In this document: one piece after another, positions 37,513 through 57,539 of the stretch
Layout of the letters: every line of letters begins with the position of its first letter
Position numbering within the stretch: the first letter of the stretch is position 1
DNA from: an uncultured Verrucomicrobiae bacterium
GTDB taxonomy: Bacteria; Verrucomicrobiota; Verrucomicrobiia; Chthoniobacterales; UBA10450
Reading direction: 5' to 3'
Assembly (NCBI GenBank): GCA_963768965.1
Contig: CAVYJY010000008.1
Coordinates: 39,649-103,648, forward strand
DNA: 64,000 nucleotides
The notes under the pieces: generated by a model
Database searches by the model: none
Told to the model about the DNA's origin: nothing
What the model saw: the letters and a program-made list of their open reading frames with translations, nothing else
Made by a program: the position numbers and the translations under genes

Positions 37513-38226
37513 CTACTGGTCTTCCCTTAAACGATAGCTGAGTTGGCGCGAGAGGAGCCAGCGCACTCCAAACATGTCGACCGTGGCGCGGACGGCGCGG
37601 TTCCCGAGGCCGTATTTGCTCAGGCCAAACTGGCGCGGCCGATGATTGACCGGGATCTCGACCAGGCGATAGCCGGCGCCTTTGACCAGCGCGGGAATAA
37701 AGCGGTGCATGCCCTTGAACGGCACGAGCGTGCGGACGCATTCGCGCCGCATCGCCTTGAGCGTGCAGCCGGTGTCGCGCACGCCGTCCTTTGTGAAACG
37801 GCTCCGGACGAAGTTCGCGATCCGGCTCGTCAGGCGCTTGACCAGGGTGTCTTTGCGTTGCGCGCGGTAGCCGCAGACCAAATCGGCGCCGCGCTCGATC
37901 TCGGCCAGGAGCCGGGGAATATCGGCCGGATCGTTCTGCAGGTCGCCGTCGATCAGGACCACGGTCGCGCCGCGGGCGGCGTTGGTGCCGGCGTACATGG
38001 CCGCGCTTTGTCCGGCGTTTTTCTCAAAGCGCAGGACGCGGATTTCCGGCGTTCTCGTTAGGCGCGAAAGCGTCTGGTCGGTCGAACCGTCATCGACAAA
38101 AATGATTTCGTGCGGAATGCCCACGAGCGCGGCGCTCAGCTCGGCCTGAAGAATGGGCACGTTTTCCTCCTCGTTAAAAAGCGGCACCACCACGGAGACG
38201 GCCGGCGGGGAAGGGTTCTCGGTCAT
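37513..38226 (-). CDS. GT2 polyprenol-phosphate glycosyltransferase (ArnC/DPM1-like)
   Basis: MTENPSPPAVSVVVPLFNEEEN, VDDGSTD, DGDLQNDP. Its ATG overlaps the TGA of the upstream gene (ATGA at 38223-38226). Confidence 0.8.
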   Translation of the reverse strand: MTENPSPPAVSVVVPLFNEEENVPILQAELSAALVGIPHEIIFVDDGSTDQTLSRLTRTPEIRVLRFEKNAGQSAAMYAGTNAARGATVVLIDGDLQNDPADIPRLLAEIERGADLVCGYRAQRKDTLVKRLTSRIANFVRSRFTKDGVRDTGCTLKAMRRECVRTLVPFKGMHRFIPALVKGAGYRLVEIPVNHRPRQFGLSKYGLGNRAVRATVDMFGVRWLLSRQLSYRLREDQ

Positions 38227-39798: not shown

Positions 39799-40445
39799 GC
39801 GATGGCATCACCGACAAGGCGCGGATGCCGGGCGAAAAATTGCGGCGCCCAGCGAGCCATCGCCCAGCGATAAAGCGCCTCGAGGAGTGCGAGCAGGATG
39901 GCCGTTTCACCCACCGCCAGGAAAAAAGTCGCCGCCACATCGCTCGGCCAATGCGCCCCGAGATAAACCCGCGACCAGGCGATCGCGATCGCAAAAACAA
40001 AATAAAGCCAGCCTCGGCGCCGGTAAAAAAAGGTCAGGATGAGCGCGACGGTGGCGTTGTTCGTCACGTGCCCGGACGGAAACGAGGGGCCGGAGCGGTT
40101 GCGATCGCTCGCGTCGGAATAACGAATGGTCACCGGCTTGAAGAGGGTGAGAAATTCCGGCCGCGCCTTGGCCTGCACCACCATGCGCACCCGCTCGACC
40201 TGTTTCGGGCGCCGCCGATCGACTGCCTTCTTCAGCGACGAGGTGATGGCGCCGTTGATGAGGAGCGCGAGGCCGATGCAGAAAACGAGCGCCCGTCCCT
40301 TGAAACCGGCGAAGATCAACGCATAGAGCACGAGCAGGGCGATCAGCGGCTTCCAGATATCGATGTTGCTGATCCCGGCCATGAACAAGTCGAGGGCCGG
40401 ACTCGTCCACTGCTCGTTGATAAGATGAAACAAAGCTCGATCCAT
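39795..40445 (-). CDS. PAP2-family phosphatase (undecaprenyl/lipid phosphate phosphatase-like)
   Basis: KKAVDRRRP ... FPSGH ... SRVYLGAHWPSDV is the tripartite PAP2 motif. The ATG at 40445 was chosen. Confidence 0.8.
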   Translation of the reverse strand: MDRALFHLINEQWTSPALDLFMAGISNIDIWKPLIALLVLYALIFAGFKGRALVFCIGLALLINGAITSSLKKAVDRRRPKQVERVRMVVQAKARPEFLTLFKPVTIRYSDASDRNRSGPSFPSGHVTNNATVALILTFFYRRRGWLYFVFAIAIAWSRVYLGAHWPSDVAATFFLAVGETAILLALLEALYRWAMARWAPQFFARHPRLVGDAIA

Positions 40446-40502
40446 GAAACTGCCGCGCGTCGGGCAGTGCGGCACGATAAGAAGCGCACTGGCGCGAAAC
40501 AA

Positions 40503-41177
40503 GTGCTTAACCGCAGCGGCCTCCTCCTTCTCCTGCTCCTTCCCCTAACGACCCTGCGCGCCGCGCCCCAGCCCGCGGCCCGGGAAATTCTCGACCGGGT
40601 GCGCCTGCAGCAATCGCAACAGCAGCTCGATCTCCAGGGCCAGCTCCGTTCCGACGGCACCGTCCTGCCCTTTCGCATCACCCAGACCGGGCCGGTCATC
40701 CGCTACACTTTCGCCAACCCGCCCGAGACCGTACAACTGCGGCTCGAGAACGAGGGCTCCCGGCTCGATCTCGTCTTTCTCAACAGCACGAAAAAGTTTT
40801 CCGCCTCCCGCCTCGACGAAAAAATCGGCGGCACCGCTGTCACCTACGGCGATCTTGCGCTCAAGTTCCTCTACTGGCCCAACGCCGAGGTGCTCACCGC
40901 CGACACCATCCGCAGCCGGATGTGCTGGAAACTTCGCCTGACCGCTCCGAGCAACGACGCGGCTTACAAGACCGTCCTGCTTTGGGTCGACCAGGAGAGC
41001 GGCGCGCTCATGCGGATGGAAGGTTACGACCAGAAAAACCTGCTCGTGAAGCGATTTGAAGTCGTCTCCGCCCAGAAAATCGACGGCCGCTGGTTCCTGA
41101 AACAAATGCGCATCGAGGAAATCGAACCGGGAACCGATAAAGTCCGCCTCCGCAGCTATCTCGAGATCAAAAAGTAG
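40503..41177 (+). CDS. Outer-membrane lipoprotein-sorting (LolA-like) fold protein
   Basis: Signal peptide LLLLLLLPLTTLRAAPQ. C-terminal pattern ..VVSAQKIDGRWFLKQMRIE... The start is uncertain (GTG 40503 proposed); the upstream part of the 450-aa track ORF is antisense to the PAP2 gene. Confidence 0.55.
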   Translation: MLNRSGLLLLLLLPLTTLRAAPQPAAREILDRVRLQQSQQQLDLQGQLRSDGTVLPFRITQTGPVIRYTFANPPETVQLRLENEGSRLDLVFLNSTKKFSASRLDEKIGGTAVTYGDLALKFLYWPNAEVLTADTIRSRMCWKLRLTAPSNDAAYKTVLLWVDQESGALMRMEGYDQKNLLVKRFEVVSAQKIDGRWFLKQMRIEEIEPGTDKVRLRSYLEIKK

Positions 41178-41242: not shown

Positions 41243-42985
41243 ATGAATCCCGCGATGTTTTTCGCTCGCTCTCTCTCGGTCGCCATTCTCCTTTTCGCCG
41301 CGTTCTCGCCGGGCCGAATTTTCGCCCAAAACGTGCCGCCGGTCGTCTCCGATTCCATTCCCGACGCCACTTATTTCGCCGGGGGACCGGCCGCCCTCGT
41401 CCCGCTCGAGGGTTATTTTAGCGACCCGGATACGACGGTTGTTCGCCTAACGACGGTGCTGGGCGAGATCGACATCGCGCTTTACGATGAGGAGACGCCG
41501 CTGACCGTGGCCAATTTCAAGAACTACATCGATAGCGGGCGCTATTTCCCGATCGACCCAACCACCCAGACGCCGGCGCCGCTATTTTTCCACCGCTCGG
41601 TCGCCGGATTCGTCATTCAAAGTGGCGGGTTCGCCGGCACGGTGAACCCAGCCGAGCCGGTGAATGTTCAGCCGACCGCGATCGTGACCTTCCCGCCGGT
41701 TCCTAACGAGCCCGGCATTTCCAATACCCGCGGCACGATCGCAATGGCGAAAGTCGAGGGAAATCCCGACAGCGCGACCAGCCAGTGGTTCATTAATCTG
41801 GCCGATAACCTCGATCTCAATACCCAGAACGGCGGGTTCACCGTTTTTGGCCGCGTCATCCGCGACGGCATGACCGTGGCCGATGCCATCGGCGCCCTCC
41901 CCCGCTTCAACTTCGGTTCGCCTTTCGAGTCGCTTCCGCTGCGCAATTTCACCGCGGGCAATTCGGTTAAGCCGGAAAACCTGGTTTCGATCCCCGCGAT
42001 TAATTACCTCCCGGCGCTCACCTTCACCGCGAGCAGCGCGCAGCCCGCGCTGGCGACCGTGAAAGTGAGCGGCACCAACCTTCTCATCACCCCCAAAGCC
42101 CTCGGCGACGCCACCATCACCGTCACCGCGACGGATGTCGACGGCGCGCAGGTTTCGCAATCCTTCGTCGTCAGCATGATCGCCAATCCCGTGCGGGTCG
42201 CGAACATCTCGACCCGCGCCCTCGTCGGCGCTCTCGATGCCGCCCTCATTGGCGGGTTTATCGTCGCGGGCGACACGCCCAAACTGGTCGCGGTGCGGGC
42301 CATCGGTCCATCGCTCGCCGGCGTCGGGATCGGCAACCCCCTCGCCAACCCGTCTCTCGAACTCCACGATGGCACCGGCGCCCTGATCGCTTCCAACGAC
42401 AATTGGCAGGACGCCGCCAACGCACAGGACCTGGTCGACCTCGGCCTGGCCCCGACTGAGCCTAACGAATCCGCCATTCTCACCACCATCCCCGCCAGCA
42501 GCACAGGTCTCGCCTACACCGCCGTCGTGCAGGGCCCGGGCGGCAGCAGTGGGGTCGGCCTGGTGGAAGTTTACGACCTCGACAGCGGCCCGGGCGCGAG
42601 TGTGCTCAACATCTCGACCCGGAGCGACGTCCAGACCGGCGATAACGTCCTTATCGGCGGTCTCATCGTTGCCGGGACCGGTTCGCAGCAGGTCCTCGTG
42701 CGCGCGATCGGACCGTCGCTCGGCAGCTTCGGCGTGGCCGATCCGCTGGCCGACCCGACCCTGACCCTCTTTGACGCCCAGGGCGCGCAGATCGATTTCA
42801 ACGACAACTGGCAGGATAACCCCGACCAGGCTGAGATCGCAGCGAGCATGCTCGCGCCTAACGATGCCGCCGAATCGGCCGTCCTGCCGACGCTGGCCCC
42901 GGGCGGCTACACCGCGATTGTGCGCGGCGCGGGCGATATCACCGGCACGGGGCTGGTGGAAGTTTACGTCCTGGGTTCCGAATAG
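41243..42985 (+). CDS. Secreted cyclophilin-type PPIase + Ig-like domain + tandem C-terminal NISTR/NDNW/LVEVY modules
   Basis: Signal peptide. Cyclophilin motifs FHRSVAGFVIQSGGF, GTIAMAK, SQWFINL, FTVFGRVI. A Big-like segment (ATVKVSGTNLLITPKALGDATITVTATD). Two roughly 125-aa modules at about 42197-42585 and 42602-42976. Confidence 0.8.
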   Translation: MNPAMFFARSLSVAILLFAAFSPGRIFAQNVPPVVSDSIPDATYFAGGPAALVPLEGYFSDPDTTVVRLTTVLGEIDIALYDEETPLTVANFKNYIDSGRYFPIDPTTQTPAPLFFHRSVAGFVIQSGGFAGTVNPAEPVNVQPTAIVTFPPVPNEPGISNTRGTIAMAKVEGNPDSATSQWFINLADNLDLNTQNGGFTVFGRVIRDGMTVADAIGALPRFNFGSPFESLPLRNFTAGNSVKPENLVSIPAINYLPALTFTASSAQPALATVKVSGTNLLITPKALGDATITVTATDVDGAQVSQSFVVSMIANPVRVANISTRALVGALDAALIGGFIVAGDTPKLVAVRAIGPSLAGVGIGNPLANPSLELHDGTGALIASNDNWQDAANAQDLVDLGLAPTEPNESAILTTIPASSTGLAYTAVVQGPGGSSGVGLVEVYDLDSGPGASVLNISTRSDVQTGDNVLIGGLIVAGTGSQQVLVRAIGPSLGSFGVADPLADPTLTLFDAQGAQIDFNDNWQDNPDQAEIAASMLAPNDAAESAVLPTLAPGGYTAIVRGAGDITGTGLVEVYVLGSE

Positions 42986-43036
42986 CATCGCCAATCAGGC
43001 CGCCTGCCGGGCCGTATCGGCCTGACCCACTTTTCG

Positions 43037-44488
43037 TTAGGCCGGAAGGGCCGGGATTCGTTGCCCAAAAATGTCGCGCAACGCCGTCCGCGCGGCGTGA
43101 TAACCACACATCCCGTGCACTCCGCCGCCGGGCGGCGTAGAGGACGAGCAGAGGTAAAATCCGCGCCGCGGCGTGCGGTAAGGCGCCGGACTAACGACCG
43201 GCCGCGCAAGCAATTGCCAGAGATCGGCCGCGCCGCCATTGATATCGCCGCCGACGAGGTTTGCATTCGAGCGCTCGAGCGCGCTCGCGGTCGAGCGGTG
43301 GCGCGCGAGCACGCCGTCGCGGAAGCCCGGCGCAAAGCGCTCGAGCTGGCGCTCGATCGCCTCCGTCATGTTGCGCTCGGAACCGTAGGGCACGTGGCAG
43401 TAAGCCCAGAGCGTTTCCTGATTCCCTGGCGCGCGCGTTCGGTCGAAGAGACTTTGCTGCGCGACGAGGACAAACGGCTTCTCCGCATGCCGGCCGCACG
43501 CGACCTCGCGCTCGCTCGCCGCAATTTCTTCCAGCGTGCCGCCGAGATGGAGCGTCCCGGCCGCGCGGCATTCCTCCGCCAGCCACGGTACCGGGCCGGA
43601 AAGCGCGTAATCAATTTTGAAAACACCCGGCGCGTGCCGGAAATCTTCCAGCCGGCGGCGATAGCGATCCGGCAACTGCTCCGCCGCCAGCCGCGCAAAT
43701 TGCCAGCAGGTGATGTCGAACAAAACCGCGCGTGCCGCGGGCAACTGCGCGAGATTTTCGATCCGGCGACCGGTTTCGATCTCGCCGCCCAACCCGCGCA
43801 AATGCGCCGCCAGTGCGTCGCTGATCGACTGCGCGCCGCCGCGCGGCAGGGGCCAGCCGACGGCGTGACCGGCCGCGCCCAGAACCAGCCCGAAGGCGGC
43901 GGAAGCGATCGCCTCCAGCGGGAGAAAAGAATGCGCCGCAATCCCGGCAAAAAGCGCGCGCGCCGGCGCTTCCCGGAAGCAGAACTTCGCCAGGGCGCCC
44001 GCCGGGGCGAGCGCGGGCAGCCCGAAACGCGCCAGTGCCAGCGGATGCTTTGGAAGATGGAGCATCGGCTGCAAAAATTCCGCGCTCAGTTTTTCCCAAT
44101 CGCGCACCAAGGGCTGCATCAGCCGGCGCCAGGCGGCCCCGTCTTTGCCTAACGACTCGTTGATTTCCTGCAAATCCTGCCGCAGGCAGGCCGCGCTGCC
44201 GCCATCGAGCGGATGCGCCAGCGCAATCGGCGGCTGAATCCATTCCAGGCCATGCCGCTGCAACGGCAGGGTCCGGAAAAAGGGCGAGCCAAAGGCCAGC
44301 GGATGAATCGCCGAACCGAGATCGTGGACAAACCCGGGCCGGGTCAGCTCGGCCGAACGCGCGGCCCCGCCGATGCTGGAATTGGCCTCGAGCACGAGGA
44401 CCGAGCAGCCGGCCTGCGCCAGAGTGATCGCGGCCGCCAGGCCATTCGGCCCGGACCCCACCACCACGGCATCGTATTCGGTCTTCAT
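43037..44488 (-). CDS. NAD(P)/FAD-dependent oxidoreductase (phytoene-desaturase/CrtI-like family)
   Basis: [35 protein letters not shown] Rossmann motif. The stop TAA lies inside a GCCTAACGA word. Confidence 0.75.
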
Positions 44489-44594
44489 TATTCTTGCGCG
44501 GCGCGCCGGCCACTTCTTTTTCCTCGGAAGCGGCAGGATTGGCAACGAAGCTTTCGCGGATGTGCAACGGCACAAACCTCGTTAGACTGCTTTG

Positions 44595-45698
44595 ATGGAC
44601 TCCATTTGGGACCTGGCTAATCCGCATTTGCGCGATCTCGCAATCTACGAGCCGGGCAAGCCGATCGAGGAAACCGCCCGCGAATCCGGCTTGCGCCCCG
44701 ATCAAATCATCAAGCTGGCCTCGAACGAAAACCCGCTCGGTCCATCGCCGGCGGTCCAGGCTGCAATGCGTGCCGCGCTTGCCGGCGCCAATCTTTACCC
44801 CGATGGCGGCGGTTTTTATCTGCGTGCCGCGCTTTCCAAGAAACTTCAGCTCGAACCGGGCAACCTCGTCCTCGGCAACGGCTCGAACGAAATCATCGAG
44901 TTCATCGGCCACGCCTTTCTCGGACCGAAGGTCGAGATCGTGACTTCCGAAAATGCCTTTATCGCCTACCGGCTGGTCGCCTCGCTCTTTGGCGCGAAGA
45001 CAGTGACCGTGCCGGACCGCGAATACTGCTTCGATCTCGAGGCGATGGCGGCCGCGATCACGCCTCAGACCCGCGTCGTCTTCATCGCCAATCCGAACAA
45101 CCCCACCGGCACACTCGTTAGGCAAGAGGGAATCGATCGCTTCATGGAGCGCGTCCCGGATCACGTCGTGGTCGTTTTCGACGAGGCTTACCACGAATAC
45201 CTCGACGCGCCGCCGGACACCCTTCAGTTCGTTAGGGAAGGTCGCAACGTGATCATTCTGCGCACCTTTTCCAAGATCCACGCTCTCGCCAGCATCCGTT
45301 TGGGCTACGGCATCGCGCGTCCGGAGTTGATTCGAGTCGTGCAAAAAACCCGCGAACCTTTCAACACCAGCGGGGTCGCCCAGGCCGCCGCCGTCGCCGC
45401 TCTCGCGGACGAAGCGCATCAGGCGGAATCGAAACGCCTGACCGACGAGGGCCGGCGTTTCCTGGAGACGGAATTTGCCGCACTCGGGCTGCCCTTCGTT
45501 CCAAGCGTGGCCAATTTTGTCCTGGTCAAGGTCGGCGACGGCAAGGCGCTGTTTAAAGATCTCCTGCGCCACGGCGTCATCGTGCGCGCCCTGAGCGGCT
45601 ACAGCCTGCCGGAATGGGTGCGGATATCCGTCGGGACGATGGAGCAGAATCGCCAGTGCATCGCCGCGCTCCGCGAGACGATGAGCCGTCATGCCTGA
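44595..45698 (+). CDS. hisC: Histidinol-phosphate aminotransferase
   Basis: LASNENPLGPSP, NPNNPTG, RTFSKIHALASIRLGY (PLP lysine). Confidence 0.9.
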   Translation: MDSIWDLANPHLRDLAIYEPGKPIEETARESGLRPDQIIKLASNENPLGPSPAVQAAMRAALAGANLYPDGGGFYLRAALSKKLQLEPGNLVLGNGSNEIIEFIGHAFLGPKVEIVTSENAFIAYRLVASLFGAKTVTVPDREYCFDLEAMAAAITPQTRVVFIANPNNPTGTLVRQEGIDRFMERVPDHVVVVFDEAYHEYLDAPPDTLQFVREGRNVIILRTFSKIHALASIRLGYGIARPELIRVVQKTREPFNTSGVAQAAAVAALADEAHQAESKRLTDEGRRFLETEFAALGLPFVPSVANFVLVKVGDGKALFKDLLRHGVIVRALSGYSLPEWVRISVGTMEQNRQCIAALRETMSRHA

Positions 45699-47040
45699 CG
45701 AAAACACGGCGACGATCGCCGCCGTCTCGACCCCGCCCGGCGAGGGCGCGATCGCGCTCGTCCGGCTTTCCGGCCCGGAAGCGATCGCGGTCGCAGATCA
45801 AATCTTTCGCGGCCCGCAACCGCCGTCCGACGCCGCGCCGCACTTCCAGCAGTTTGGCGAGATCGTGGAGGAAGAAAGGGTGATCGACCAGGTGCTGCTC
45901 ACGGTTCATCGCGGGCCGGCCAGTTACACCGGTGAAGACGTGGTCGAGATCAGCTGTCACGGCGGCGTGCTGGTGACGGCGCGGGTCTGGGAAGCCTGTC
46001 TCCAGGCCGGGGCGCGCGCGGCTCGTCCCGGCGAGTTTACCGAGCGCGCCTTCCTCAACGGCAAGATGGATCTGACCCAGGCCGAAGCCGTGATCGATCT
46101 CATTCGCGCCCAGACCGATCTCGCGCTCCGCTCGGCCGCGGAACAACTCGAAGGCCGGCTGGGTGAAAAGATCACGAAGTTGCGCGAAGACCTCATCGGA
46201 CTGATCGCGAATCTCGAGGCCTACATCGACTTCCCCGATGAAGACATCGAACCGGATGTAGGCGCGGTCTTCCTCGCGCGCCTGGATGCCATCCGGCTCG
46301 CGATCGACACCCTTCTCGCGACCGCGGACCAGGGCCGCATCTTCCGCGAAGGAGTGCGCGTCGTGATTTACGGCGCGACCAATGCCGGAAAATCGAGCCT
46401 GCTCAACCGCCTCCTTGGTTTCCCGCGCGCGATCGTGAGCGAAACGCCGGGCACGACCCGCGATACGATCGAGGAAGTGGTCAACTTGCGCGGAATCGCG
46501 CTGCGCCTGACCGATACCGCCGGCCTTCGCGCCACCGAGACGGACGCGATCGAGAACGAAGGCATCGCGCGCACCGAGCGCTCGCTCGCCAACGCCGATC
46601 TTGTTCTGCATGTGGTCGACGCGAGCGCGCCGCGCCCGGCGCATTTCGGTGTGCGCGCGGGAGGTGTGCCTGAGCTTTTGCTTTTGAACAAAAGCGATCT
46701 GCCGGAACACAGCGACTGGGCGGGCTGCGAGGCGCTGCGCATTTCCTGCACGAGTGAGGACGGGCTCGCGGGCTTGGAGGATGCGATCCTCAGCAAAGTC
46801 AGCGCCCAACGCTGGGACGTGCTGAGCGCGGTCGCGATCAACGCGCGTCATCGCGATTGCCTGCGGCGCGCGCTCGCTGCCTGCGATGTAGCGCGGGACG
46901 CATTTACGCAAAATCTGGCGCCGGAATTGGTCGCGGTCGATCTGCGTGGCGCCTTGCAGGCGGTCGGCGAGGTCATCGGACACGCCGACATGGAGAAAAT
47001 CCTCGACGCGCTTTTCGCCACGTTTTGCATCGGAAAATGA
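45691..47040 (+). CDS. mnmE: tRNA modification GTPase MnmE (TrmE)
   Basis: G-domain GATNAGKSSLLN / DTAGLR / NKSD and C-terminal CIGK. Overlaps the hisC stop. Confidence 0.95.
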   Translation: MPDENTATIAAVSTPPGEGAIALVRLSGPEAIAVADQIFRGPQPPSDAAPHFQQFGEIVEEERVIDQVLLTVHRGPASYTGEDVVEISCHGGVLVTARVWEACLQAGARAARPGEFTERAFLNGKMDLTQAEAVIDLIRAQTDLALRSAAEQLEGRLGEKITKLREDLIGLIANLEAYIDFPDEDIEPDVGAVFLARLDAIRLAIDTLLATADQGRIFREGVRVVIYGATNAGKSSLLNRLLGFPRAIVSETPGTTRDTIEEVVNLRGIALRLTDTAGLRATETDAIENEGIARTERSLANADLVLHVVDASAPRPAHFGVRAGGVPELLLLNKSDLPEHSDWAGCEALRISCTSEDGLAGLEDAILSKVSAQRWDVLSAVAINARHRDCLRRALAACDVARDAFTQNLAPELVAVDLRGALQAVGEVIGHADMEKILDALFATFCIGK

Positions 47041-48065
47041 ACGGCCTAACGAGTGACTGGTATGAACAAATCGTTCGGCCGCTCCTCTTCCGGATGGATC
47101 CCGAGACGGCGCATCACCTGGCCATGCGCCTTCTCCGCAGCGCTCCGCAGATCCCGGGCGGGCTGGCCTTTTTGCGTTCCTTCGCCCCGCCGCCGCAGCC
47201 GCGCACTCTTTTCGGTTTGCAGTTCCGGAATCCGTTAGGCCTCGCCGCCGGCTTCGATAAAAACGGCCTCGCCATCCCGGCCTGGGAAGCGCTCGGGTTC
47301 GGTTTCGTCGAGATCGGGACGGTGACCGCCAAACCGCAACCCGGAAATCCGCGGCCGCGCATTTTTCGCTACCCGAAAGAGGAAGCGCTGGTAAACCGGC
47401 TCGGGTTCAATAACGAAGGCGCGAACGTGATCGGCGAACGGCTGCGGCGATTGCGCGCGAGCTCTGCGGCGCCGGCGATTCCGATCGGCGTTAACCTCGG
47501 GAAGTCGAAAGTCACGCCGCTGGAGGAGGCGCCGGCGGATTATCTCTACAGCTTTCGCCGGCTCGCGCCCGTGGCCGATTACATCGCGCTGAACGTCAGC
47601 TCGCCCAATACCCCGGGCTTGCGCAGTTTGCAGGAGCGCGATGCCCTGGCCGCCTTGTTCCGCGTCGTGACCGAGGAAAACGCGCGCCTCCCCTCGCCGA
47701 AACCGCTCCTGCTCAAGATCGCGCCGGACCTTTCCGACGATGCCCTCGGAGAAATCGTCGGCGTCTGTGAAGAATTTGGGTTGGCCGGCCTGATCGCGAC
47801 GAACACCACGCTCGACCATGGCGCACTCCGCGCCACCGAGGAAGCGGGCGGGTTGAGCGGAGGCCCGTTGCGCGCGCGTGCGACCGAAGTCATCCGGCTC
47901 CTGCGCAGCCGGACGCGCCTGCCGCTAATCGGAGTCGGCGGAATCTGCGACGCGGCTTCCGCGCGGGAGAAGCTGGAGGCAGGCGCGGAGCTGCTCCAGA
48001 TCTATACCGGTTATATTTATCGCGGGCCCGGCCTGCTCCGCGAACTGGGTGCTTCCCTCTCGTAA
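47037..48065 (+). CDS. pyrD: Dihydroorotate dehydrogenase (quinone), class 2
   Basis: MNGLTSDWYEQIVRPLLF N-terminus, GFVEIGTVT..PQPGNPRPR, LGFNNEG, NVSSPNTPGLR. ATGA overlap with mnmE. Confidence 0.9.
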   Translation: MNGLTSDWYEQIVRPLLFRMDPETAHHLAMRLLRSAPQIPGGLAFLRSFAPPPQPRTLFGLQFRNPLGLAAGFDKNGLAIPAWEALGFGFVEIGTVTAKPQPGNPRPRIFRYPKEEALVNRLGFNNEGANVIGERLRRLRASSAAPAIPIGVNLGKSKVTPLEEAPADYLYSFRRLAPVADYIALNVSSPNTPGLRSLQERDALAALFRVVTEENARLPSPKPLLLKIAPDLSDDALGEIVGVCEEFGLAGLIATNTTLDHGALRATEEAGGLSGGPLRARATEVIRLLRSRTRLPLIGVGGICDAASAREKLEAGAELLQIYTGYIYRGPGLLRELGASLS

Positions 48066-48214
48066 TTCGTTAGGCAACCCGGGCGGTCGGAAGCTTTCTC
48101 CGGCACGATTGGCGGGCGCGCCCGAGGAGTTCTTCGGGCGCAGTTTGAGGACAGACTTTGCCTCGGGAGCGGCACGTTCATTGCTATAATTACCATAGTT
48201 TCTAGAACTATTAT

Positions 48215-49768
48215 ATGCGCTCCCTTTTGTCCAAGATCTTTGCTGGCGTCGCTTTTCCTCTCCTCACCGCGAGCGCTTTTGCCGATAACCTCACCCTCGC
48301 CTGGAATCCGGGCGAAGGAGGAACTCCCCAAGGCTACATTCTTTACTGGGGCGTCACCTCCGGGGGCCCTTACAACCGGATGGACGACACGCATCATCAG
48401 ACCACCGTCACCCTGAGCAACCTCACGAACGGCGTCCGCTATTACTTCGTCGCCACAGCCTACAACATCGACGGCGTCCAGAGCGGATACTCGGAAGAAA
48501 TCTCCGCCGTCCCCGGTGCGACGCCCACGCCAACTCCGACTCCGACTCCGACGCCCACGCCAACGCCAACCGCGACCCCAACTCCAACTGCGACCCCAAC
48601 TCCAACTGCGACGCCAACTCCCACTCCGACCGCGACGCCTACGCCAACCCCGAGCGCGACTCCGACTCCAACGCCTACGCCAACTCCGACGGCAACGCCT
48701 ACGCCCACTCCGACCGCAACGCCCACTCCCACAGCGACGCCAACGCCGACAGCAACCCCAACACCAACTGCCACCCCCACGGCAACGCCAACGCCAACTG
48801 CAACCCCAACTCCAACGGCAACCCCGACACCAACCGCGACTCCGACGCCGACTCCGACGCCGAGCCCGACACCGACGGCAACGCCCACACCTTCCGCCAC
48901 GCCAACCCCGAGCCCGAGCCCGACTCCGACTCCATCTTCGACCCCCACGCCAACTCCGAGCCCGACCCCTTCACCGACTGCGACGCCACCTCTGCCGCCT
49001 CAGTACCTGCTTAACATCTCCACCCGCGTGAAAGTGCGCGGCGGTGACAACGTCATGATCGGCGGATTCATCATCGACGGTGCCGCCAATAAGGATGTCG
49101 TCTTCCGCGCCCTCGCCCCGTCGCTCGCCGACCTCGGCGTCAAAAAGGTCCTGAGCGATCCAAGCCTGGAGGTTTACAATTCGGCCGGCGCACTCGTTCA
49201 CCAAAACGACAACTGGACCACCCTGCCGGCCGGCACCGTCCCCGCCGGACTTGAGCCGAAATACCCGGCCGAGGCGGTCATCGTGGCCAGCCTTGCGCCC
49301 GGCAGCTACACCGCCGTCCTCCGCAGCGTGAATGGCGTCGAGGGAAATGCCCTTTGCGAGCTTTACGACCTGCTTCCAGGCAATTCCAGCGTGCGCAATA
49401 TCTCGACCCGCGGTCAGGCGGGCGCCGGTGACGACGTCATGATCGGAGGCTTCATCGTGGCTGGCACCCAGCCTTCAAAAGTCATGATCCGGGCCATCGG
49501 TCCCTCCCTTACCGCGTTCGGTCTCACGGGAGTGCTGCCCGATCCGGTTCTCGAACTCCGCGACCAGGAAGGGTCGCTCATCTATCAGAACGACAACTGG
49601 CAGGGTGAGCAGGCTCAGCAGATCGTCGACTCCGGCCTCAAACCTATCAACGCCAAGGAATCGGCCATCTTGGCCACGCTTACCCCCGGTGCCTACACCG
49701 CAATCGTGCACGACGCCGGCTCTGGCCAGGGCGTCGCTTTGGTGGAAGTCTACGCGCTCGATCCGTGA
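48215..49768 (+). CDS. Secreted FN3-like domain + roughly 160-aa (Thr-Pro)n linker + tandem NISTR/NDNW/LVEVY modules
   Basis: Signal peptide. FN3-like [15 protein letters not shown]...YYFVATAYN. Modules at about 49008-49380 and 49391-49765. The C-terminal roughly 260 aa are nearly identical to those of the next gene. Confidence 0.8.
48518..48998 (+). repeat. Low-complexity (ACN-CCN)n coding repeat for the Thr/Pro/Ala/Ser linker
   Basis: Roughly 160 codons of [12 protein letters not shown]. Open in all six frames, which explains several spurious track ORFs. Confidence 0.9.
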
Positions 49769-49824
49769 TCCGGTCTGTTTCGAATAATCGCGACCGGCAC
49801 ACCACAATTTTTAGCTATTTCGTA

Positions 49825-51708
49825 ATGGACCATTCCTTCGTGAAATTCTTTCTCATCGCTGCTCTTTCCCTTTGCGCCACCGCCGTTTTTGCGGAGAACC
49901 TCTCGCCCTCTGGAATCATCGGCGGCGGGTCCGCGTCCTGGACCAATCCGCACACCGCCGGCCGCTACAAAAAGTACTATTGGAAAGATCTTCAACCCAC
50001 CAGCAGCACCGCCTACAATTGGGCCGATCTCGACTCGCAGGTTGCGAGCGCGGTGGCGAACAAGAAGCAGTTCATCGTTCTCCTCAACCTTAATTCGGGA
50101 GACCCGACCGGCGGAATCGGCGCCCTGCCTTCATGGCTGATCAGCGCCGGAGCCAAGGCGTATCCAATGGTCAGCACCAAAACGGGCGAGACGCTTTACC
50201 AGTTTTTGCCCTGGGACCCGGTCTGGCAAAGTCACGCGCTGACTTTGATTGCGGCATTTTGCGACCGCTACGACGGGCAACTCGCGAGCGTTTCGATGGG
50301 GGGACTTGGCGGCACGACTGAGATGCACATGAACGACACTTTCCCTTATCCCGACGGCAAAGACATGGCCGCGGCCGCGGCGGCGTGGGTGATATCGAGT
50401 AATACGATCATCGCGCAGTACGCCGCCCATCTCACCCAGACGCCGTTCGTGGCGGCTCTCGCAGTTCCTTTCAACGGGACGACAGGAACGACTGCGCTCC
50501 AGTCCGTCGTGGACACTTCGCTCAGCCTCTATGGTTCGCGCATCGGGTTTGAGAATTGGGGCCTCAACGCCGATAGCTCCACCAGCTATCTGCCCAACGC
50601 GATCATTTACAATCATCGCTTTACCAATCCAGTCGGCTTCCAGATGACCGGCAACGCCACCACCGGAGGCGGAGGCGATCTTCGTGGAACATTGCGCGAG
50701 GCGATGGACGCCGGCGTCGCCATGGGCGCCCAGTATTTGCAGGTCTACGGTGACGACGTAGCAAACCCCATCTACGCCGACGATCTCGACGCGGTCGCGG
50801 CGCAGCTTCTTCCACCGCCAAACCCGACGCCGACGCCGTCGCCAACACCGACGGCGACGCCGACACCTACACCTACACCTACAGCGACGCCGACGCCGAC
50901 GCCGACTCCTACCCCGAGTCCGACGCCCACTCCGCCACCTCATTACCTGCTCAACATCTCTACCCGCGTGAAAGTGCGCACCGGTGACAACGTCATGATC
51001 GGCGGCTTCATCATCGACGGCGCGGTCAACAAAGACGTCGTCTTCCGTGCGCTCGGACCGTCCCTGGGCGATCTCGGGATCAAGAAAGTCCTGAGCGATC
51101 CGAGCCTGGAGGTTTATAACTCTGCCGGCACGCTGGTGCAGCAGAACGACAACTGGACCACCTTGCCGCCCGGAACTGTTCCCGCTGGCTTGGAACCGAA
51201 ATACTCGGCCGAGTCCGTCATCCTGGCCAACCTCGCGCCTGGCAGCTACACCGCCATCCTTCGCAGCGTCAATGGTGTCACCGGGAACGCACTTTTCGAG
51301 CTCTACGACCTCGTCCCGGGCAATTCCAGCGTGCGCAACATCTCGACCCGCGGCCAGACCGGCGTGGGCGACGACGTCATGATCGGAGGCTTCATCGTCG
51401 CAGGAGTCCAGCCATCAAAGGTCATGATCCGGGCCATCGGCCCTTCGCTCACCGCCTTCGGCCTCACCGGCGTCCTGCCCGATCCGGTCCTCGAGCTCCG
51501 CGACCAGGAGGGATCGCTCATTTACCAGAACGACAACTGGGAGGGCGAACAGGCGCAGCAGATCCTCGACTCGGGCCTCGCGCCAGGTGACGCCAGGGAA
51601 TCGGCCATCATCGCCACGCTTAACCCCGGCGCCTACACCGCGATCGTGCACGGCGCCGGCGCCGACCAGGGCGTCGCCTTGGTAGAAGTCTACGCGCTCG
51701 ACCCGTAG
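49825..51708 (+). CDS. Secreted TIM-barrel-like (putative glycoside-hydrolase-like) head + (Thr-Pro)n linker + tandem NISTR/NDNW/LVEVY modules
   Basis: Signal peptide [23 protein letters not shown]. Head of about 330 aa with only weak GH42/GH35-like patterning ([10 protein letters not shown]..., PSWL). Modules at about 50947-51320 and 51331-51705. Confidence 0.7.
50812..50940 (+). repeat. Second (ACN-CCN)n Thr/Pro linker-coding repeat
   Basis: [43 protein letters not shown]. Confidence 0.9.
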
Positions 51709-51739
51709 GCGGGCCCAAGAACCGATTCAGCCTAACGAC

Positions 51740-54700
51740 TTAAGGCATCTGGTAGACTTCCACCAGTCCGACACCCGTCGTGTTGTTTTTCCCGCGGATG
51801 ACGGCGGAGTAACTGCCCGGATCCAACGTCACCAGAACGGCCGATTCCTTATCGTTGGTCGGGGCGAGGCCCGTCGCTTCGATCGCTGCCTTGTCGTCGG
51901 TCTTCCAATTGTCGTTCGATAGGATCAACTGGGAACCCCGATAAAAATCGAGCGTCGGATCCTGCAGCGCGCCCTCGACACCGGCAGCAGTCAGGCTCGG
52001 GCCACGCGCCCGAATCATCACCTGATGACTGACCTGGCCGCTGATGATAAAGCCACCAATGAGCGCCGTGTTATCATCATCACCAACGCTGGTTCGGGTC
52101 GAGATGTTAACGAGTAACGTGGCACTGGTTGAATCCAGGTCGTAAACCTCCACCAAGCCCACGCCGTTGGTCGTCCCGCGCAGAATCGCGGTGTATGGCC
52201 CGGGAGCGAGAGTGATAACGACGGCGGATTCGCGGTCATCGGTCGGAGCCAGTCCGGTCGCTTCAATCTCGGCTTCCTGACTCTCTCGATAGCTATCATT
52301 ATAGAAAAGCTGTGTCCCCGCCCCGTCATGGAGGTCAAGCGACGGATCCTGCAGCGCGTTCACCACGCCTTTCTGGGTGAGTGAAGGACCGAGGCCACGG
52401 ATGATGACCTGCTTCGGCGTATTGCCCTGGATAATGAAACCCGCAATCATGACTCCGTCCCCACTCTGGACGAGGCCGCGGGTCGAGATATTAACCGGCT
52501 TGGTCGAGAGATCCGGATTAACAATACTAACGAGCGTCGACGATGTCGTGCCGAGGAAGGCGCCGTTGGTCGGATTCGACAGATTGATCATGAACTGCCG
52601 GGTCGGCGAGCCGACCGATTGGTTGATCAGAGTGACGTTGATGACCTTGGACGTGACGCCAGGGCCAAAGGTGAGCGTGCCTGAGGTGGCCACGTAATCC
52701 GTTCCAGCCTTGGCCGTCACATCGCTGGTCGCGTAACTCACCGAATAGGTTAGGTTCGGATCGCCGATCCGCGACAGCGTAACCGTCGTGCTCGCCACTC
52801 CAGCCTGGTTGTTCACCGTATAAGTCGGCGAAGCGAATTGGAAAGTCGTCGCATCATTATCAATGATCGTGACCGTCGCCGTGCTCGGTGTCCCGAGCCG
52901 TGGCGCCGCGTTCGTTCCTTCGCCGAGAGGATTCGAGAGGACGACGCTAAAGGTCGTCGTGCCATCGGTGCTGGTGTTATCGATGATCGGGACCGTGATC
53001 GTTTGCGAGAAGATATTCGGCCCAAAAGTCAGGCGGCCCGACGTGCGCGTATAATTGGAACCTTCGGTTGCGGTCCCGTCGCTGGTGGCGTAGTCGACCG
53101 TGACGGTCTCGTTAGGGTCGCCCACCCGGAGGGCTTCCACCGTCAGCGTCACCGTCCCCGAGCCCTCATCCACAGAGTAGGTGGAAGGGTTAAAGCGAAA
53201 AGCGGTCGCATCGTTATCGATGATGTTTACGGTGGCCTGGCCGATGCCACCGACAAACCCGGTTCCATCCGGCGAGGTTAACGTGACGGTAAAGAAAAGC
53301 GTCGGGTTAGTCGTGGGGTCGTCGATGATCGGGATTTGAATGGTCTTGCTGACTTCACCCACATTGAAGGTGACGCTGCCGGTGGTGGCGACATAGTTAA
53401 TGCCAGAGAGGGCGGTGCCATCGCTCGTCGAATAATTGACGGTCGCTTGCACGCCAAGCCCGCCCGAGCGGGTCACGGTGAGACTGGCGAACCCGGCACC
53501 TTCATCAACATCAAAGGAAGATTTGCTGAACCCGATCGTGGCAGTGGGTGAATCATCGTCGGCGATATCGACGGTAGCGACGCTATTTGTGCCAATCGCC
53601 GCTCCCGGACCAGGTTCGCTCAGACTAACGAAAAAGCTTTCAGTGCTCTCGATAAGGTTGTCGTTGGTGATTGGGACATTGACCGTCTTTTGCGTCTCGC
53701 CCGCGTTGAAAGTCAAGGTGCCGCTGCTTAAAGTAAAATCAGCCCCCTGGGCTGCCGTCCCGCTAATCGTCTGATATTTGACAGTCAGTATGTCGTTCGG
53801 GTTACCTTGACGGCTGGCGGTAACGATCAGGTTAACGGATCCACCGTTTTCCGCGACCGTATAATTAGCCGGACTGAACTGAATGGTGCTGCGGATATCG
53901 TCGTCGATGATCGTAACAATGGAGCTACCCTGGGCGCCCACGATCGCCCCCGGGCTAGGATTACTCAGCGTGACCCGGAAAGTCTCCGGGTCCTCGGAAA
54001 TCGTATCATTGTTAATTGGAACCAAGATTGTCTTACTTGTCTCTCCCGGGGCAAAAGTAAGGGTGCCGATAACTGGAGAAAAATCGAAGCCAGAAAAGGC
54101 TGTAATCGGCGTCGCGGCATAATTCACGGAAGTTGCCTTCGAAGCGTCACCATTGGGGATGAGATTAACGGTCAGAACGGCGTTACCTCCCGCCTCGGTA
54201 ATGCTATAGGTAGCACTGCTGAACTGCACGACATTGCCGAGATCGTCATCGGTGATCGTGATCTGAGTCGAAGAAATGCTGCCTAGCTGCGCGACGTCGC
54301 TGCTCGTCAGAGTGAGATGAAAAGTCACGTCGCCCTGGATGAGGGTGTTATTAGGGATCGGGATAATAATTGTTTTTTGATGTTCGTTATCCACGACCAC
54401 AGTTACGTCGTTGATCTTCGCCACCAATGGGGCAAAAAAGATCGTGCCGGAAACCGGGGTAAAGTTCACGCCCGACTGAGCGGTGTCACCCGCTCTCAGT
54501 TCGGTCGTGTAATCCACCGAGGTGCCGTTGACGTCAAAGTCACCAAATCGCACAACCGTGATCGCGATGGCGAGTTGATCCCCTTCCTTAAACCGATGGG
54601 CTGTCGTGAGGAATTGAGCGGTGTTCGGACCGGCATTATCAAAGATCGTGACCCGGGCCGTAGCCTGCGCCCCGATGGAAGTAAACGGACCCGGATTGAT

Positions 54701-56767
54701 GAGGCCGATCGTAAAAGTCTTCACGCCCTGTGCGAGCGGATTATCCTTCACCGGGATGGTGACGTCCTGAACATTCACCCCGGCTGGGAAAGTAATGGTG
54801 GTCGATGACGGCAGGTCGTAATCAACCCCCAGGACCGCCGTATCCCCGGTCGCCCCTAACGATAGTTCGACGGTCAGCACCTGGTTGGGATCGGCACCGC
54901 GCGTTGCTTTGACTCTCACTTGCACGGCGCCGCTGATTTCCACGACGCCATACTCCGGGGAGTCAAATTCCACCGTGTTCAAGCCATCATCATCTTGCAG
55001 GGCGACTTCCGCCGAGGAAGGAAGACCCAGAGTGGCGTTGACTGGATTACTTAATTCCACCGTAAAGGATTGAGGAGGTTCCACCACGGTATCGTTTAGG
55101 ACCGGCACAGTGATCGTTCCAACCGATGAACCCGAGGCAAACGTCAGGGTTCCGCTGGTCTGGACAAACCGACTGCCATCGGCCGACCCAGCGACGGTTT
55201 GGTATTGCACACTCACGGTCGAGGTGGTGCTACCGGTCCGATTCAGAAGCACGGTCAGCGTCACGGCACCGGCATTCTCCGAGACGGAGTAGGTGGGACT
55301 GCTGAATTGGACCGTGCCTGCGGTATCGTCGTCCAGAATCGCCAGGCTCGAGACCGAAACGCTCCCCAAGGTCGCGCCGGTCGGATTCGCCAAGACCAGC
55401 CCGACCGTCTCCGTATTCTCGACCAAGGTATCATTGAGAAGCGTAACTGTGAAAGTCTTGAGCGTCTCTCCCGCGTTGAAAGTCAACCTCTTATTCGAGC
55501 CACTCGAGATCGCGGTGTAATCCTGTCCCGGCGTCGCCGAACCGGTCTCAGTGAAATACTGCACTGTCACCACCTGGTTTTGATCGCCGACGCGATTGAC
55601 TCGCACTGTCACGGTCGCGATACCGCCGTTCTCACTTGCCGAATAAGTCGTACTCACAAACTCGACTGTGTTCGCGCTTTCGTTATCGATAATCGAGACC
55701 TCGGCGTTCTGGGTTCCGCCCGGTATGATCACTCCGGAGTTAGGACTCGCGCTCAGGGCGATGAAGAACGATTCAGTACCTTCGACTTCGGAGTCGTCGA
55801 AAATGGGAACGTCGAAAGTCGCGAAGGTCTGGCCTTGCGCGAAGGCCACCGTGCGCGTGACAGTCGCGTAGTCGCGATCGGCTGCGGCGGTACCTCCGAC
55901 GGTGCTGATGTTGACCTCCACAGCACTGCTGATATTGCCGCTGCGGAGGAGAGTGATGGTAGCATTGACCCCGTTCTCCGCCACCTGATAAGAGGTATTG
56001 CTAAAGGTCACCGTGCTGGCCTCATTGTCTACGATCGTGACCACGGCGATGGCCTGGCCGAAAGCAAAATCGCCGCCTTGCGAGGAGAGGTTCACCGTAA
56101 AGGTCTCGTCCCCCTCGACGACCGAATCGTCGAGAATCGAGACGGGAATCGATTTGGAGGTTTCGCCGGGGTTAAAAGTCAGTGTCCCGGTCGCTGCAAG
56201 ATAGTCGACGTTCTGCGTTGCTGACCCGGAAGCAGTAGTGAAGTCCACCATGTCTGTGCCCGTCGTATCTCCGGTCCGAGTCACGGTGAGCTGAATGCTG
56301 CCGCCGTTCTCAGTCACGGAATAAGATGCAGGGTTGAACCCAATCGTCGTGCCGCTGCTGTCGTTGTCGTTAATCGTGACCGTGGCAACGCTCGTTCCGA
56401 GCGTCGCATTCGTCGGCTTGGAGAGGGTAAAGGTGAACTGTTCCTGTGACTCCGCGACCAGATCATCCACCAGCGGGACTAAAACCAGTTTGGCCGATTC
56501 GTTAGGGGCAAAGCTTAGTGTCCCTGTCGTCTGGGTATAATCGGTCGCTTTTTTTGCCGTCCCGTCGGCGGTCGCGTAATCCACCGTGATCGTGTTTGCA
56601 TGATTGGCCGGCGTCACTTGCACCACAATCGCCACACTGCCGCCGCTTTCGGAAACGGTGTAACTGCTGGCTTGCAGTGAGACCGTATTTTGCGCCGAGA
56701 CATGCTGGGCAAAGCCGGCCAGGAGGAGGAGAAGCGCGGTCAGGAAGACCGCTCGGATGGTTTGCAT
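51740..56767 (-). CDS. Giant secreted protein: 12 Calx-beta domains + tandem NISTR/NDNW/LVEVY modules
   Basis: Signal peptide MQTIRAVFLTALLLLLAGFAQHVSA (ATG 56767). Twelve units of about 115 aa following Y.V.E.GG...V.V.R.G.....V.Y.T..G(T/S)A..G.DY....GTL.F..GE..K...V.I.DD...E..E.F.V.LS.P. C-terminal modules at about 52495-52125 and 52111-51743. Confidence 0.85.
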   Translation of the reverse strand: MQTIRAVFLTALLLLLAGFAQHVSAQNTVSLQASSYTVSESGGSVAIVVQVTPANHANTITVDYATADGTAKKATDYTQTTGTLSFAPNESAKLVLVPLVDDLVAESQEQFTFTLSKPTNATLGTSVATVTINDNDSSGTTIGFNPASYSVTENGGSIQLTVTRTGDTTGTDMVDFTTASGSATQNVDYLAATGTLTFNPGETSKSIPVSILDDSVVEGDETFTVNLSSQGGDFAFGQAIAVVTIVDNEASTVTFSNTSYQVAENGVNATITLLRSGNISSAVEVNISTVGGTAAADRDYATVTRTVAFAQGQTFATFDVPIFDDSEVEGTESFFIALSASPNSGVIIPGGTQNAEVSIIDNESANTVEFVSTTYSASENGGIATVTVRVNRVGDQNQVVTVQYFTETGSATPGQDYTAISSGSNKRLTFNAGETLKTFTVTLLNDTLVENTETVGLVLANPTGATLGSVSVSSLAILDDDTAGTVQFSSPTYSVSENAGAVTLTVLLNRTGSTTSTVSVQYQTVAGSADGSRFVQTSGTLTFASGSSVGTITVPVLNDTVVEPPQSFTVELSNPVNATLGLPSSAEVALQDDDGLNTVEFDSPEYGVVEISGAVQVRVKATRGADPNQVLTVELSLGATGDTAVLGVDYDLPSSTTITFPAGVNVQDVTIPVKDNPLAQGVKTFTIGLINPGPFTSIGAQATARVTIFDNAGPNTAQFLTTAHRFKEGDQLAIAITVVRFGDFDVNGTSVDYTTELRAGDTAQSGVNFTPVSGTIFFAPLVAKINDVTVVVDNEHQKTIIIPIPNNTLIQGDVTFHLTLTSSDVAQLGSISSTQITITDDDLGNVVQFSSATYSITEAGGNAVLTVNLIPNGDASKATSVNYAATPITAFSGFDFSPVIGTLTFAPGETSKTILVPINNDTISEDPETFRVTLSNPSPGAIVGAQGSSIVTIIDDDIRSTIQFSPANYTVAENGGSVNLIVTASRQGNPNDILTVKYQTISGTAAQGADFTLSSGTLTFNAGETQKTVNVPITNDNLIESTESFFVSLSEPGPGAAIGTNSVATVDIADDDSPTATIGFSKSSFDVDEGAGFASLTVTRSGGLGVQATVNYSTSDGTALSGINYVATTGSVTFNVGEVSKTIQIPIIDDPTTNPTLFFTVTLTSPDGTGFVGGIGQATVNIIDNDATAFRFNPSTYSVDEGSGTVTLTVEALRVGDPNETVTVDYATSDGTATEGSNYTRTSGRLTFGPNIFSQTITVPIIDNTSTDGTTTFSVVLSNPLGEGTNAAPRLGTPSTATVTIIDNDATTFQFASPTYTVNNQAGVASTTVTLSRIGDPNLTYSVSYATSDVTAKAGTDYVATSGTLTFGPGVTSKVINVTLINQSVGSPTRQFMINLSNPTNGAFLGTTSSTLVSIVNPDLSTKPVNISTRGLVQSGDGVMIAGFIIQGNTPKQVIIRGLGPSLTQKGVVNALQDPSLDLHDGAGTQLFYNDSYRESQEAEIEATGLAPTDDRESAVVITLAPGPYTAILRGTTNGVGLVEVYDLDSTSATLLVNISTRTSVGDDDNTALIGGFIISGQVSHQVMIRARGPSLTAAGVEGALQDPTLDFYRGSQLILSNDNWKTDDKAAIEATGLAPTNDKESAVLVTLDPGSYSAVIRGKNNTTGVGLVEVYQMP

Positions 56768-57005: not shown

Positions 57006-57539
57006 ATGACGCGCCTTATCTTTGGTCTTGTCTTTCTGTCACTCGCCTTGTCCTCCTCTCTCCGAGCCCAATCCCCCGCCCCGGCCGCTTCTGCGACGCC
57101 TTCACCCACGCCCGCCTGCCAGGCGGCGGAGTTTCGCCAGTTCGATTTTTGGCTGGGCAAATGGAAGGTCTCGCTCCAGCGCGGCCAGCAGGTCGGGTCG
57201 AGCGAGATCACCCGCCAGGCCGAAGGCTGCGCCATCCGCGAGCAATGGACCGCCGCCTCCGGCAAGGGCGGGATGAGCATCAATTATTACGACCCGGCGG
57301 TGAAGAAATGGCACCAGGATTGGGTCGGCGGCGACGGCACCATCCTGCACCTCCGCGGCGGGATGAAAGACGGCGTCATGGTCCTGAGCGATGAGCCGGC
57401 GAAGGGCCAGGCCACACTGGTGAATCGGATTTCGTTTACCCCGATGCCGGATGGCAAAGTGAAACAGGAATGGGCGACCTCGAAGGATAACGGCCAGACC
57501 TGGCAGACCAGTTTCCTCGGGATTTACGAGAAGCTGTAG
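57006..57539 (+). CDS. Secreted hypothetical protein (DUF1579-like?)
   Basis: Signal peptide. 177-aa ORF with FDFWLGKW and WHQDWVG patterns. The family assignment is tentative. Confidence 0.5.
   Translation: MTRLIFGLVFLSLALSSSLRAQSPAPAASATPSPTPACQAAEFRQFDFWLGKWKVSLQRGQQVGSSEITRQAEGCAIREQWTAASGKGGMSINYYDPAVKKWHQDWVGGDGTILHLRGGMKDGVMVLSDEPAKGQATLVNRISFTPMPDGKVKQEWATSKDNGQTWQTSFLGIYEKL

Follow-up and report, generated by a model that had tools for sequence, protein, structure and literature searches.

A paired PPC/CBD-like cassette, usually C-terminal, in secreted proteins of soil Chthoniobacterales

Bacteria of the order Chthoniobacterales, including Candidatus Udaeobacter, are abundant in soil and largely uncultured, and for most of their extracellular proteins the annotation is 'hypothetical' or gives the head domain alone. 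A 64,000-nt stretch of DNA from an uncultured member of this order (GenBank assembly GCA_963768965.1, contig CAVYJY010000008.1, positions 39,649 to 103,648), hereafter termed the window, raises the question of what such proteins may have in common. Between positions 41243 and 56767 of the window, the feature studied here, four genes encode secreted proteins with unrelated heads which all end in the same two consecutive modules, together termed the cassette. What kind of domain is this cassette, how strictly is it paired, and what might it do for proteins as different as those that carry it? The analysis described below presents the cassette as an unnamed, new PPC/CBD-like module, distinguished by obligate heterotypic pairing, a signature of its own and a very large, clade-specific expansion.

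Eight modules in four exoproteins

The four cassette proteins of the window, named A to D, are the following:

41243-42985, plus strand: protein A, 580 aa; signal peptide, cyclophilin peptidyl-prolyl isomerase (PPIase), Ig-like (Big_2-like) domain, cassette
48215-49768, plus strand: protein B, 517 aa; signal peptide, FN3, Thr-Pro-rich linker of ~160 aa, cassette
49825-51708, plus strand: protein C, 627 aa; signal peptide, ~300-aa head without family, Pro/Thr linker of ~49 aa, cassette
51740-56767, minus strand: protein D, 1675 aa; signal peptide, 12 Calx-beta domains, cassette

A preliminary description of this DNA had reported four proteins with a Sec signal and a shared C-terminal module, and all four open reading frames (ORFs) and their signals were confirmed, each of the four N-termini (4/4) having the basic n-region, hydrophobic h-region and A-x-A-like site of a Sec-type signal peptide. 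The heads it had named were recovered for three of the proteins. In Pfam scans, protein A matched the cyclophilin family PF00160 (E 5.8e-28) and, weakly, Big_2; protein B matched fn3 with 34.8 bits, seen only when the head was scanned alone; and protein D matched Calx-beta, PF03160, in 12 stretches (E 5.8e-256). The label 'TIM-barrel-like' given to protein C was not confirmed, as its head has no match in Pfam or among PDB sequences. The head region of protein C (49825-50796, ~300 aa) is conserved in relatives.

Each of the four proteins is closed by two adjacent copies of a module of 125-135 aa, here called 'a' (first) and 'b' (second):

42194-42598, plus strand: module A1 ('a', first); domain E 4.7e-53, has K30 and YDL
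42599-42982, plus strand: module A2 ('b', second); domain E 1.2e-57, with a match to NF038127 at residues 502-560
49004-49387, plus strand: module B1 ('a'), from alignment and module profile
49388-49765, plus strand: module B2 ('b'), from alignment and module profile
50944-51327, plus strand: module C1 ('a'), from alignment and module profile; part of the tandem AlphaFold model
51328-51705, plus strand: module C2 ('b'), from alignment and module profile; modelled alone
52118-52501, minus strand: module D1 ('a'), from alignment and module profile
51743-52117, minus strand: module D2 ('b'), from alignment and module profile

The claim of eight copies within 15.5 kb was upheld by a six-frame search of the window with the module profile, which recovered precisely those eight (domain E 1e-53 to 1e-61) and, even at E<=10, no further copy. 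A nucleotide string had also been said to be kept at the module starts; the motif AAYATCTCNACCCG indeed occurs eight times, once at each of them, with an expectation of 0 (100 shuffles). Pairwise identity among the eight copies is 41-55%, with the exceptions of B1/C1 (88%) and B2/C2 (89%), and 30 alignment columns are invariant across all copies. The module signature reads NISTR ... GGFI ... RA.GPSL ... NDNW ... ESA ... LVEVY, and its invariant or near-invariant polar and aromatic positions (R8, R35, N68, D69, W71, E91, Y103 and E120) may belong to a binding site for a ligand or for Ca2+.

Two of the heads are joined to the cassette via long Thr-Pro linkers, as the preliminary description had stated:

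48515-49003, plus strand: Thr/Pro-rich linker of protein B, 163 aa with 70 T and 63 P
50797-50943, plus strand: Pro/Thr-rich linker of protein C, recognised by composition; the B/C nucleotide homology starts within it

Unbroken runs of T, P, S and A, mostly Thr and Pro, occupy residues 102-259 of protein B and 334-372 of protein C. A Thr-Pro linker was rejected as a rule for the whole family, a T/P/S-rich stretch preceding the pair in just 18 of 139 representatives.

Pairing, sequence relatives and predicted fold

The paired state proved to be general. Related loci were gathered with a single tandem pair as the query and with flanks of +/-6 kb, and exactly two copies of the module were found in 117 of the 140 cassette ORFs of these loci, as well as in 112 of 120 close matches and 114 of 150 representatives; the other carriers mostly contain four or six copies, set as pairs. 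The partners within a pair are separated by 0-8 aa. Apparent single copies were nearly all fragments resulting from frameshifts or locus edges, and the statement, made for the window, that the module is always paired thus extends to the family as a whole. The pair, and not the single module, is the unit. At several loci (L016, L045, L054, L061, L068 and L072) the cassette is split over adjacent frames, mimicking a single module, which reflects either frameshift errors or pseudogenes.

The two partners represent distinct lineages. The nearest neighbour in a different protein was of the same type for 143 of 164 'a' modules and for 151 of 166 'b' modules. Residues specific to 'a' are K30 (90%), where strand 3 begins, and D123 (96%), located at the a-to-b junction, and G9 (78%) is specific to 'b'; K30 and D123 are candidates for fixing the junction between the two modules. 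The a-then-b pattern is obeyed by all four proteins of the window.

No Pfam model matches the module, either in the four proteins and their isolated modules (E<=1) or in 35 diverse family members (E<=5), and a PDB sequence search with the module profile gave only chance-level matches (E >= 0.48). Matches to Secretin, MshL and YscC were weak, far under the cut-offs, and rested on a local 'GD.V.IGG.I' hairpin; they were rejected as homology. The closest sequence relative is the DVUA0089 ('FDP') family, NCBIfam NF038127, whose cut-off of 29 bits was approached by proteins A (25.0 bits) and B (27.9 bits) and reached by protein C (29.4 bits), protein D not being listed. Single modules matched this model in 23 of 35 cases (best E 1.5e-7), module C2 alone scoring 15.9 bits, and the aligned part spanned at most positions 6-109, mostly ~49-109, of the 150 in the profile. 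Comparison by hhalign of the module profile with 26 DVUA0089-family proteins gave a probability of 72% and an E of 3.3e-5 over 58 columns, the shared stretch being DP.L.L..G..(ND/DD)...L.PG.Y.

Proteins of both groups are Sec-exported. In the founder DVUA0089, encoded by plasmid pDV1, a signal peptide precedes a ~150-aa domain and a PEP-CTERM anchor closes the chain, and its relatives are built alike, being ~200 aa long with a single copy of the domain and PEP-CTERM (PF07589), whereas the cassette is paired and the protein ends at the module; a Pfam scan of the window proteins gave no match to PEP-CTERM. The N- and C-terminal thirds of the DVUA0089 domain and of the module also differ. In terms of sequence the module thus forms a family of its own, the DVUA0089 family being its nearest named, yet distant, relative. 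The earlier statement that the module could not be placed in a named family is therefore correct with respect to Pfam and has to be qualified by the matches to NF038127. A search of the literature on DVUA0089, on PPC together with Verrucomicrobia, on Chthoniobacterales, on Udaeobacter and on the NISTR motif found no account of the module, and public entries for cassette proteins are termed 'hypothetical protein' or titled after the head, none of them naming the module.

Structure prediction placed the module more precisely. The AlphaFold2 model of the single module C2 is a sandwich of 8-9 strands (pLDDT 86.6, pTM 0.81) and that of the C1-C2 tandem reached a pLDDT of 86.3 and a pTM of 0.76, both obtained from shallow input alignments of 8 and 20 sequences. 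The best PDB matches of the C2 model, as found by Foldseek, were all PPC-type jelly rolls, with probability 1.0 and template modelling (TM) scores of 0.5-0.67. The top single-domain match was the C-domain of Tk-SP, a subtilisin from Thermococcus kodakaraensis (3afg; TMq 0.62-0.64, root-mean-square deviation [rmsd] 3.2-3.8 A, 123 columns, 11-12% identity), and the model also matched ColG s3b (1nqj/2o8o, TMt up to 0.62), the PPC domain of a B. anthracis collagenase (5sv5, TMt 0.67) and ColH s3 (3jqw). The tandem model had as its top match the tandem CBD of ColG, s3a-s3b (5iku, E 2e-8), and its pTM suggests a defined mutual orientation of the two modules. On the basis of these models the module is predicted to have a PPC/CBD-like beta-jelly-roll or beta-sandwich fold, which bears out the earlier hunch of a PPC-type beta-sandwich.

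The NISTR segment and the hairpin following it (module residues 1-20) had the lowest pLDDT, 58-70, in both models, the rest being mostly >85. This could be due to the shallow alignments, or to a strand partner or Ca2+ missing from the model.

The likeness to the clostridial CBDs (ColG s3a-s3b, ColH s3) and to PPC domains (PF04151) goes beyond the jelly roll of ~110-125 aa, as these domains too are C-terminal in secreted proteins, often in tandem (with 5iku and protease E495 as precedents), and carry the motif L.PG.Y..V in the penultimate strand. In contrast to them, the cassette shows obligatory pairing of distinct first and second modules, is attached to heads that are mostly not peptidases and, in the genome sample, is almost confined to Chthoniobacterales. 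The C-domain of Tk-SP, described as a Ca2+-dependent stabiliser, is likewise a C-terminal jelly-roll appendage of a secreted protein, but it is a single copy, archaeal, and found on one protease.

Heads, position in the chain and candidate functions

The family is very large. A profile made from the eight modules identified 18,847 clusters (50% identity) when E<=1e-3 was required and 9,813 when the limit was set to E<=1e-30, and the tandem-pair query yielded at least 8,000 candidates; one unnamed cassette of 255 aa thus marks at least the first of these numbers of clusters. Among the 79 best genome loci, 77 belong to Chthoniobacterales, Udaeobacter, 'Spartobacteria' or Verrucomicrobia soil metagenome-assembled genomes (MAGs). 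Carriers labelled as other phyla are L055 (a Nitrospirota MAG), L079 (a Tepidisphaeraceae MAG) and P0113 (a Ktedonobacteraceae MAG), which could be explained by mis-binning or by horizontal transfer; in architecture and sequence, L055 is essentially the Udaeobacter locus L046. A hydrophobic N-terminus was present in 96 of the 125 representatives starting with Met. Heads of 67 representatives included 57 Pfam families, such as He_PIG, fn3, PKD, beta-propellers, Laminin_G_3, astacin, subtilase, GH25, cyclophilin and CHRD, so that the cassette unites peptidases, a lysozyme-type glycosidase, PPIase, arrays of Ig, FN3 and Calx-beta domains, and beta-propellers.

The position of the pair is strongly biased, and less strictly C-terminal than was reported from the window, where that description does apply. 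A pair lies at the C-terminus of 139 of 150 representatives, and the chain ends within 15 residues of a pair, mostly 0-2, in these 139 and in 125 of 140 locus ORFs. A second pair is also present in 25 of 150 representatives (~17%), often right behind the signal peptide, and three pairs occur in 2 of 150. Solely N-terminal or internal pairs were found in 11 of 150 representatives and in 7 of ~125 complete locus ORFs (~6-7%). The pair directly follows the signal peptide, with 230-780 residues after it, in L026, L046, L055, L058, L060, L064, P0168, P0179-P0181 and P0247, in architectures that include signal peptide-pair-CHRD-DUF1800, signal peptide-pair-M23 peptidase and signal peptide-pair-BNR. 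This N-terminal design is recurrent (L058, L064 and L026, also L046, L055 and L060; P0181 and P0247), and some of its members contain regions of 600-780 aa without family.

These properties may be accommodated as follows. Two PPC/CBD-like jelly rolls separated by 0-8 aa would form one ancient, asymmetric and probably rigid cassette of ~255 aa, acting as a non-catalytic targeting module at an end, usually the C-terminal one, of the mature chain, and joined in Chthoniobacterales to dozens of unrelated Sec-exported heads, be they enzymes, Ig/FN3/Calx-beta arrays or beta-propellers. The cassette would bind an insoluble or polymeric ligand, either a glycan of the cell's own envelope or matrix or a polymer of the environment, possibly with Ca2+. 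By this means the heads would accumulate or be kept at the surface in question, in a way comparable to what ColG s3a-s3b and the tandem PPC domains of secreted proteases achieve. The evidence leans towards this view of the PPC/CBD-like pair as a binding or targeting module and not a sorting signal, because its fold relatives bind, because it sits at chain ends, in certain proteins after long flexible linkers, and because any head is accepted and a protein may be flanked on both sides. ColG s3a-s3b binds collagen (PDB entry titles). For protease E495, binding of protein substrates has been assigned to its C-terminal PPC domains, which are in tandem and use polar and aromatic residues that are conserved (PMC3327674). 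DVUA0089, for its part, is a member of a sigma-54 regulon concerned with exopolysaccharide and biofilm (PMC4641369), a weak pointer to the ligand of the cassette. Among the three functions that the preliminary description had considered (anchoring, sorting, ligand binding), ligand binding fits best.

Several observations weigh against a binding module of the PPC/CBD type. The profile PF04151 itself failed to match the four proteins and isolated modules at E<=1 and 35 diverse modules at E<=5, so that, of the features of the PPC superfamily, the cassette shares the jelly-roll fold and the C-terminal, often tandem build in Sec-secreted proteins but has its own signature in place of that profile. 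Profile-profile comparison of the module with ColG s3a/s3b by hhalign was not significant (probability 0.2%). The classical D-x-D-x-Y residues of PPC domains, associated with binding and Ca2+, are not recognisably conserved as far as the alignments tell, because the ColG comparison aligns only L.PG.Y..V; other acidic and aromatic residues are conserved in the module (D15, D52, N68, D69, W71, E91, Y103 and E120), with no established equivalence to those of PPC. The similarity of the predicted folds is moderate (TM 0.5-0.67) and small beta-sandwiches are easily alike, the C2 model also scoring to GOLD domains, calpain domain III and the CPE C-domain. The tandem model superposes on 5iku with a TM of just 0.32, and the mutual orientation of the two domains would therefore differ from that in the ColG tandem. 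The strong bias to the exact C-terminus (139/150) is not demanded by a pure binding role. Finally, the fold, the pairing, the family size, the range of heads and the positions in the chain are results of the analysis, and it is binding itself, a need for Ca2+ and the kind of ligand that are inferred.

A more specific form of the binding view, tentative and rather doubtful as it stands, would cast the cassette as the recognising partner in a surface-retention system peculiar to the clade, binding an envelope or matrix glycan of Chthoniobacterales/Udaeobacter and tethering to the cell many exoproteins per genome that are otherwise unrelated. It would be a functional equivalent of SLH, cell-wall-binding and dockerin modules, differing from them in being an obligate heterotypic PPC-like pair. 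If true, surface retention would explain how abundant soil bacteria organise their extracellular proteome. Neither form of the binding view would introduce a new principle, terminal binding modules of the PPC/CBD type, tandem ones included, being already well known. A profile together with the fold assignment (PPC/CBD-like, obligate pair) would nevertheless improve genome annotation and allow the exoproteome to be delimited computationally, and would single out the tandem cassette as one recombinant reagent with which to seek the polymer to which the exoproteins attach.

Among the alternatives to a targeting module, self-association is unlikely, and yet accounts for part of the evidence. Pairs on different proteins might adhere to each other, perhaps in pseudo-symmetric jelly-roll oligomers, and build a surface layer or matrix in which proteins with pairs at both ends act as cross-linkers. 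The second pair found in 25 of 150 representatives, and the three pairs found in some, would suit such a role, as would the clustering of cassette genes, at least two lying within ~12 kb in 34 of 80 loci. The most conserved motif, NISTR, is an edge strand of low pLDDT (58-70) whose real partner could be missing from the model, but low confidence at an edge is also expected from alignments of 8 and 20 sequences. The tandem model matched double-jelly-roll capsid proteins (PRD1 P3) and bicupins (vicilins) with E values of 1e-4 to 1e-7, but the TM is only ~0.25 (0.17-0.26) and the rmsd 13-19 A, and a double-jelly-roll or bicupin reading of the tandem was rejected.

That the cassette serves as a secretion or sorting tag is improbable. 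A translocon or sortase-like enzyme of Chthoniobacterales would recognise the folded pair, export the protein and then cleave or attach the cargo, in the manner of the type IX secretion system (T9SS). The C-terminal domains (CTDs) of T9SS cargo are also small beta-sandwiches, and crossing the outer membrane of a diderm cell takes a further step beyond the Sec signal that all window proteins possess. Also in keeping with a tag are the extreme diversity of the cargo and the distance of at most 15 residues between a pair and the chain end in 139/150 representatives and 125/140 locus ORFs. T9SS CTDs, dockerins and SLH domains all resemble the cassette in being shared terminal modules behind interchangeable extracellular heads; they differ in giving no sequence match and in that the cassette may also be N-terminal, internal or present as several pairs. 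With regard to T9SS in particular, TIGR04183 was matched by 1 of 35 modules at E 0.1, the cassette is neither single-copy nor exclusively C-terminal, and no T9SS machinery was found among the ORFs of the window or in the flanks of 79 loci, a survey that did not cover whole genomes. The cassette, at 255 aa, is also much larger than known sorting domains. All-against-all BLAST of the ORFs within +/-6 kb in the 79 loci revealed no conserved partner gene such as a sorting enzyme or receptor, the recurrent non-cassette clusters being antisense shadows of the cassette, hisC/mnmE/pyrD synteny, an FtsX-type permease and a prolyl oligopeptidase. The N-terminal, internal, both-end and triple pairs, together with the lack of a partner gene in these flanks, speak against a sorting tag; the preliminary description, which had proposed a sorting or anchor signal, had itself named N-terminal and internal occurrences as evidence to the contrary, and that proposal is not retained.

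A stabilising or folding appendage without a target of its own, similar to the Ca2+-binding jelly roll of Tk-SP or to PPC domains trimmed after secretion, is very improbable: the top single-domain structural match is indeed the Tk-SP C-domain, and protease E495 loses its PPC domains step by step once secreted (PMC3327674), but the cassette is attached to heads from no fewer than 57 unrelated families, among which are many autonomous Ig, FN3 and propeller folds, is held off by Thr-Pro linkers of up to ~160 aa, and can occupy both ends of one protein.

Duplication and genomic surroundings

The high identity of the B and C modules extends to the nucleotide level. Positions 48947-49768 of gene B and 50887-51708 of gene C are 84% identical over 821 nt, the homology running from ~57 nt inside the Thr-Pro linker to the stop codon, and the heads are unrelated. 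The two cassettes differ by 75 synonymous versus 30 non-synonymous codons, which points to purifying selection. By sequence, linker and cassette seem to have been duplicated together not long ago, ending up behind a different head, with the repetitive linker DNA as a plausible site of recombination. Many public gene models for B/C homologues are only 237-244 aa long and start at an internal Met or Val in the first module ('MIGGFII...', 'VRGGD...'); gene calls truncated in this way lose the head and linker (e.g. P0003-P0007, P0017 and P0024).

Just upstream of gene A (37513-41177) lie three envelope-related genes:

37513-39798, minus strand: PMT_2 + GT2 fusion glycosyltransferase
39795-40502, minus strand: PAP2 phosphatase
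40485-41177, plus strand: LolA-like protein

Three further ORFs of the window have a coding-like codon bias and no Pfam match:

57006-57539: ORF of 177 aa next to gene D, with a signal-peptide-like N-terminus
32279-34222, minus strand: ORF of 647 aa
19095-20048: ORF of 317 aa

Genes A and B are parted by a hisC-mnmE-pyrD block (44592-48065) that is syntenic in the closest relatives (L001, L003, L005 and L010), and the cassette genes therefore sit among housekeeping genes and not in a dedicated island.

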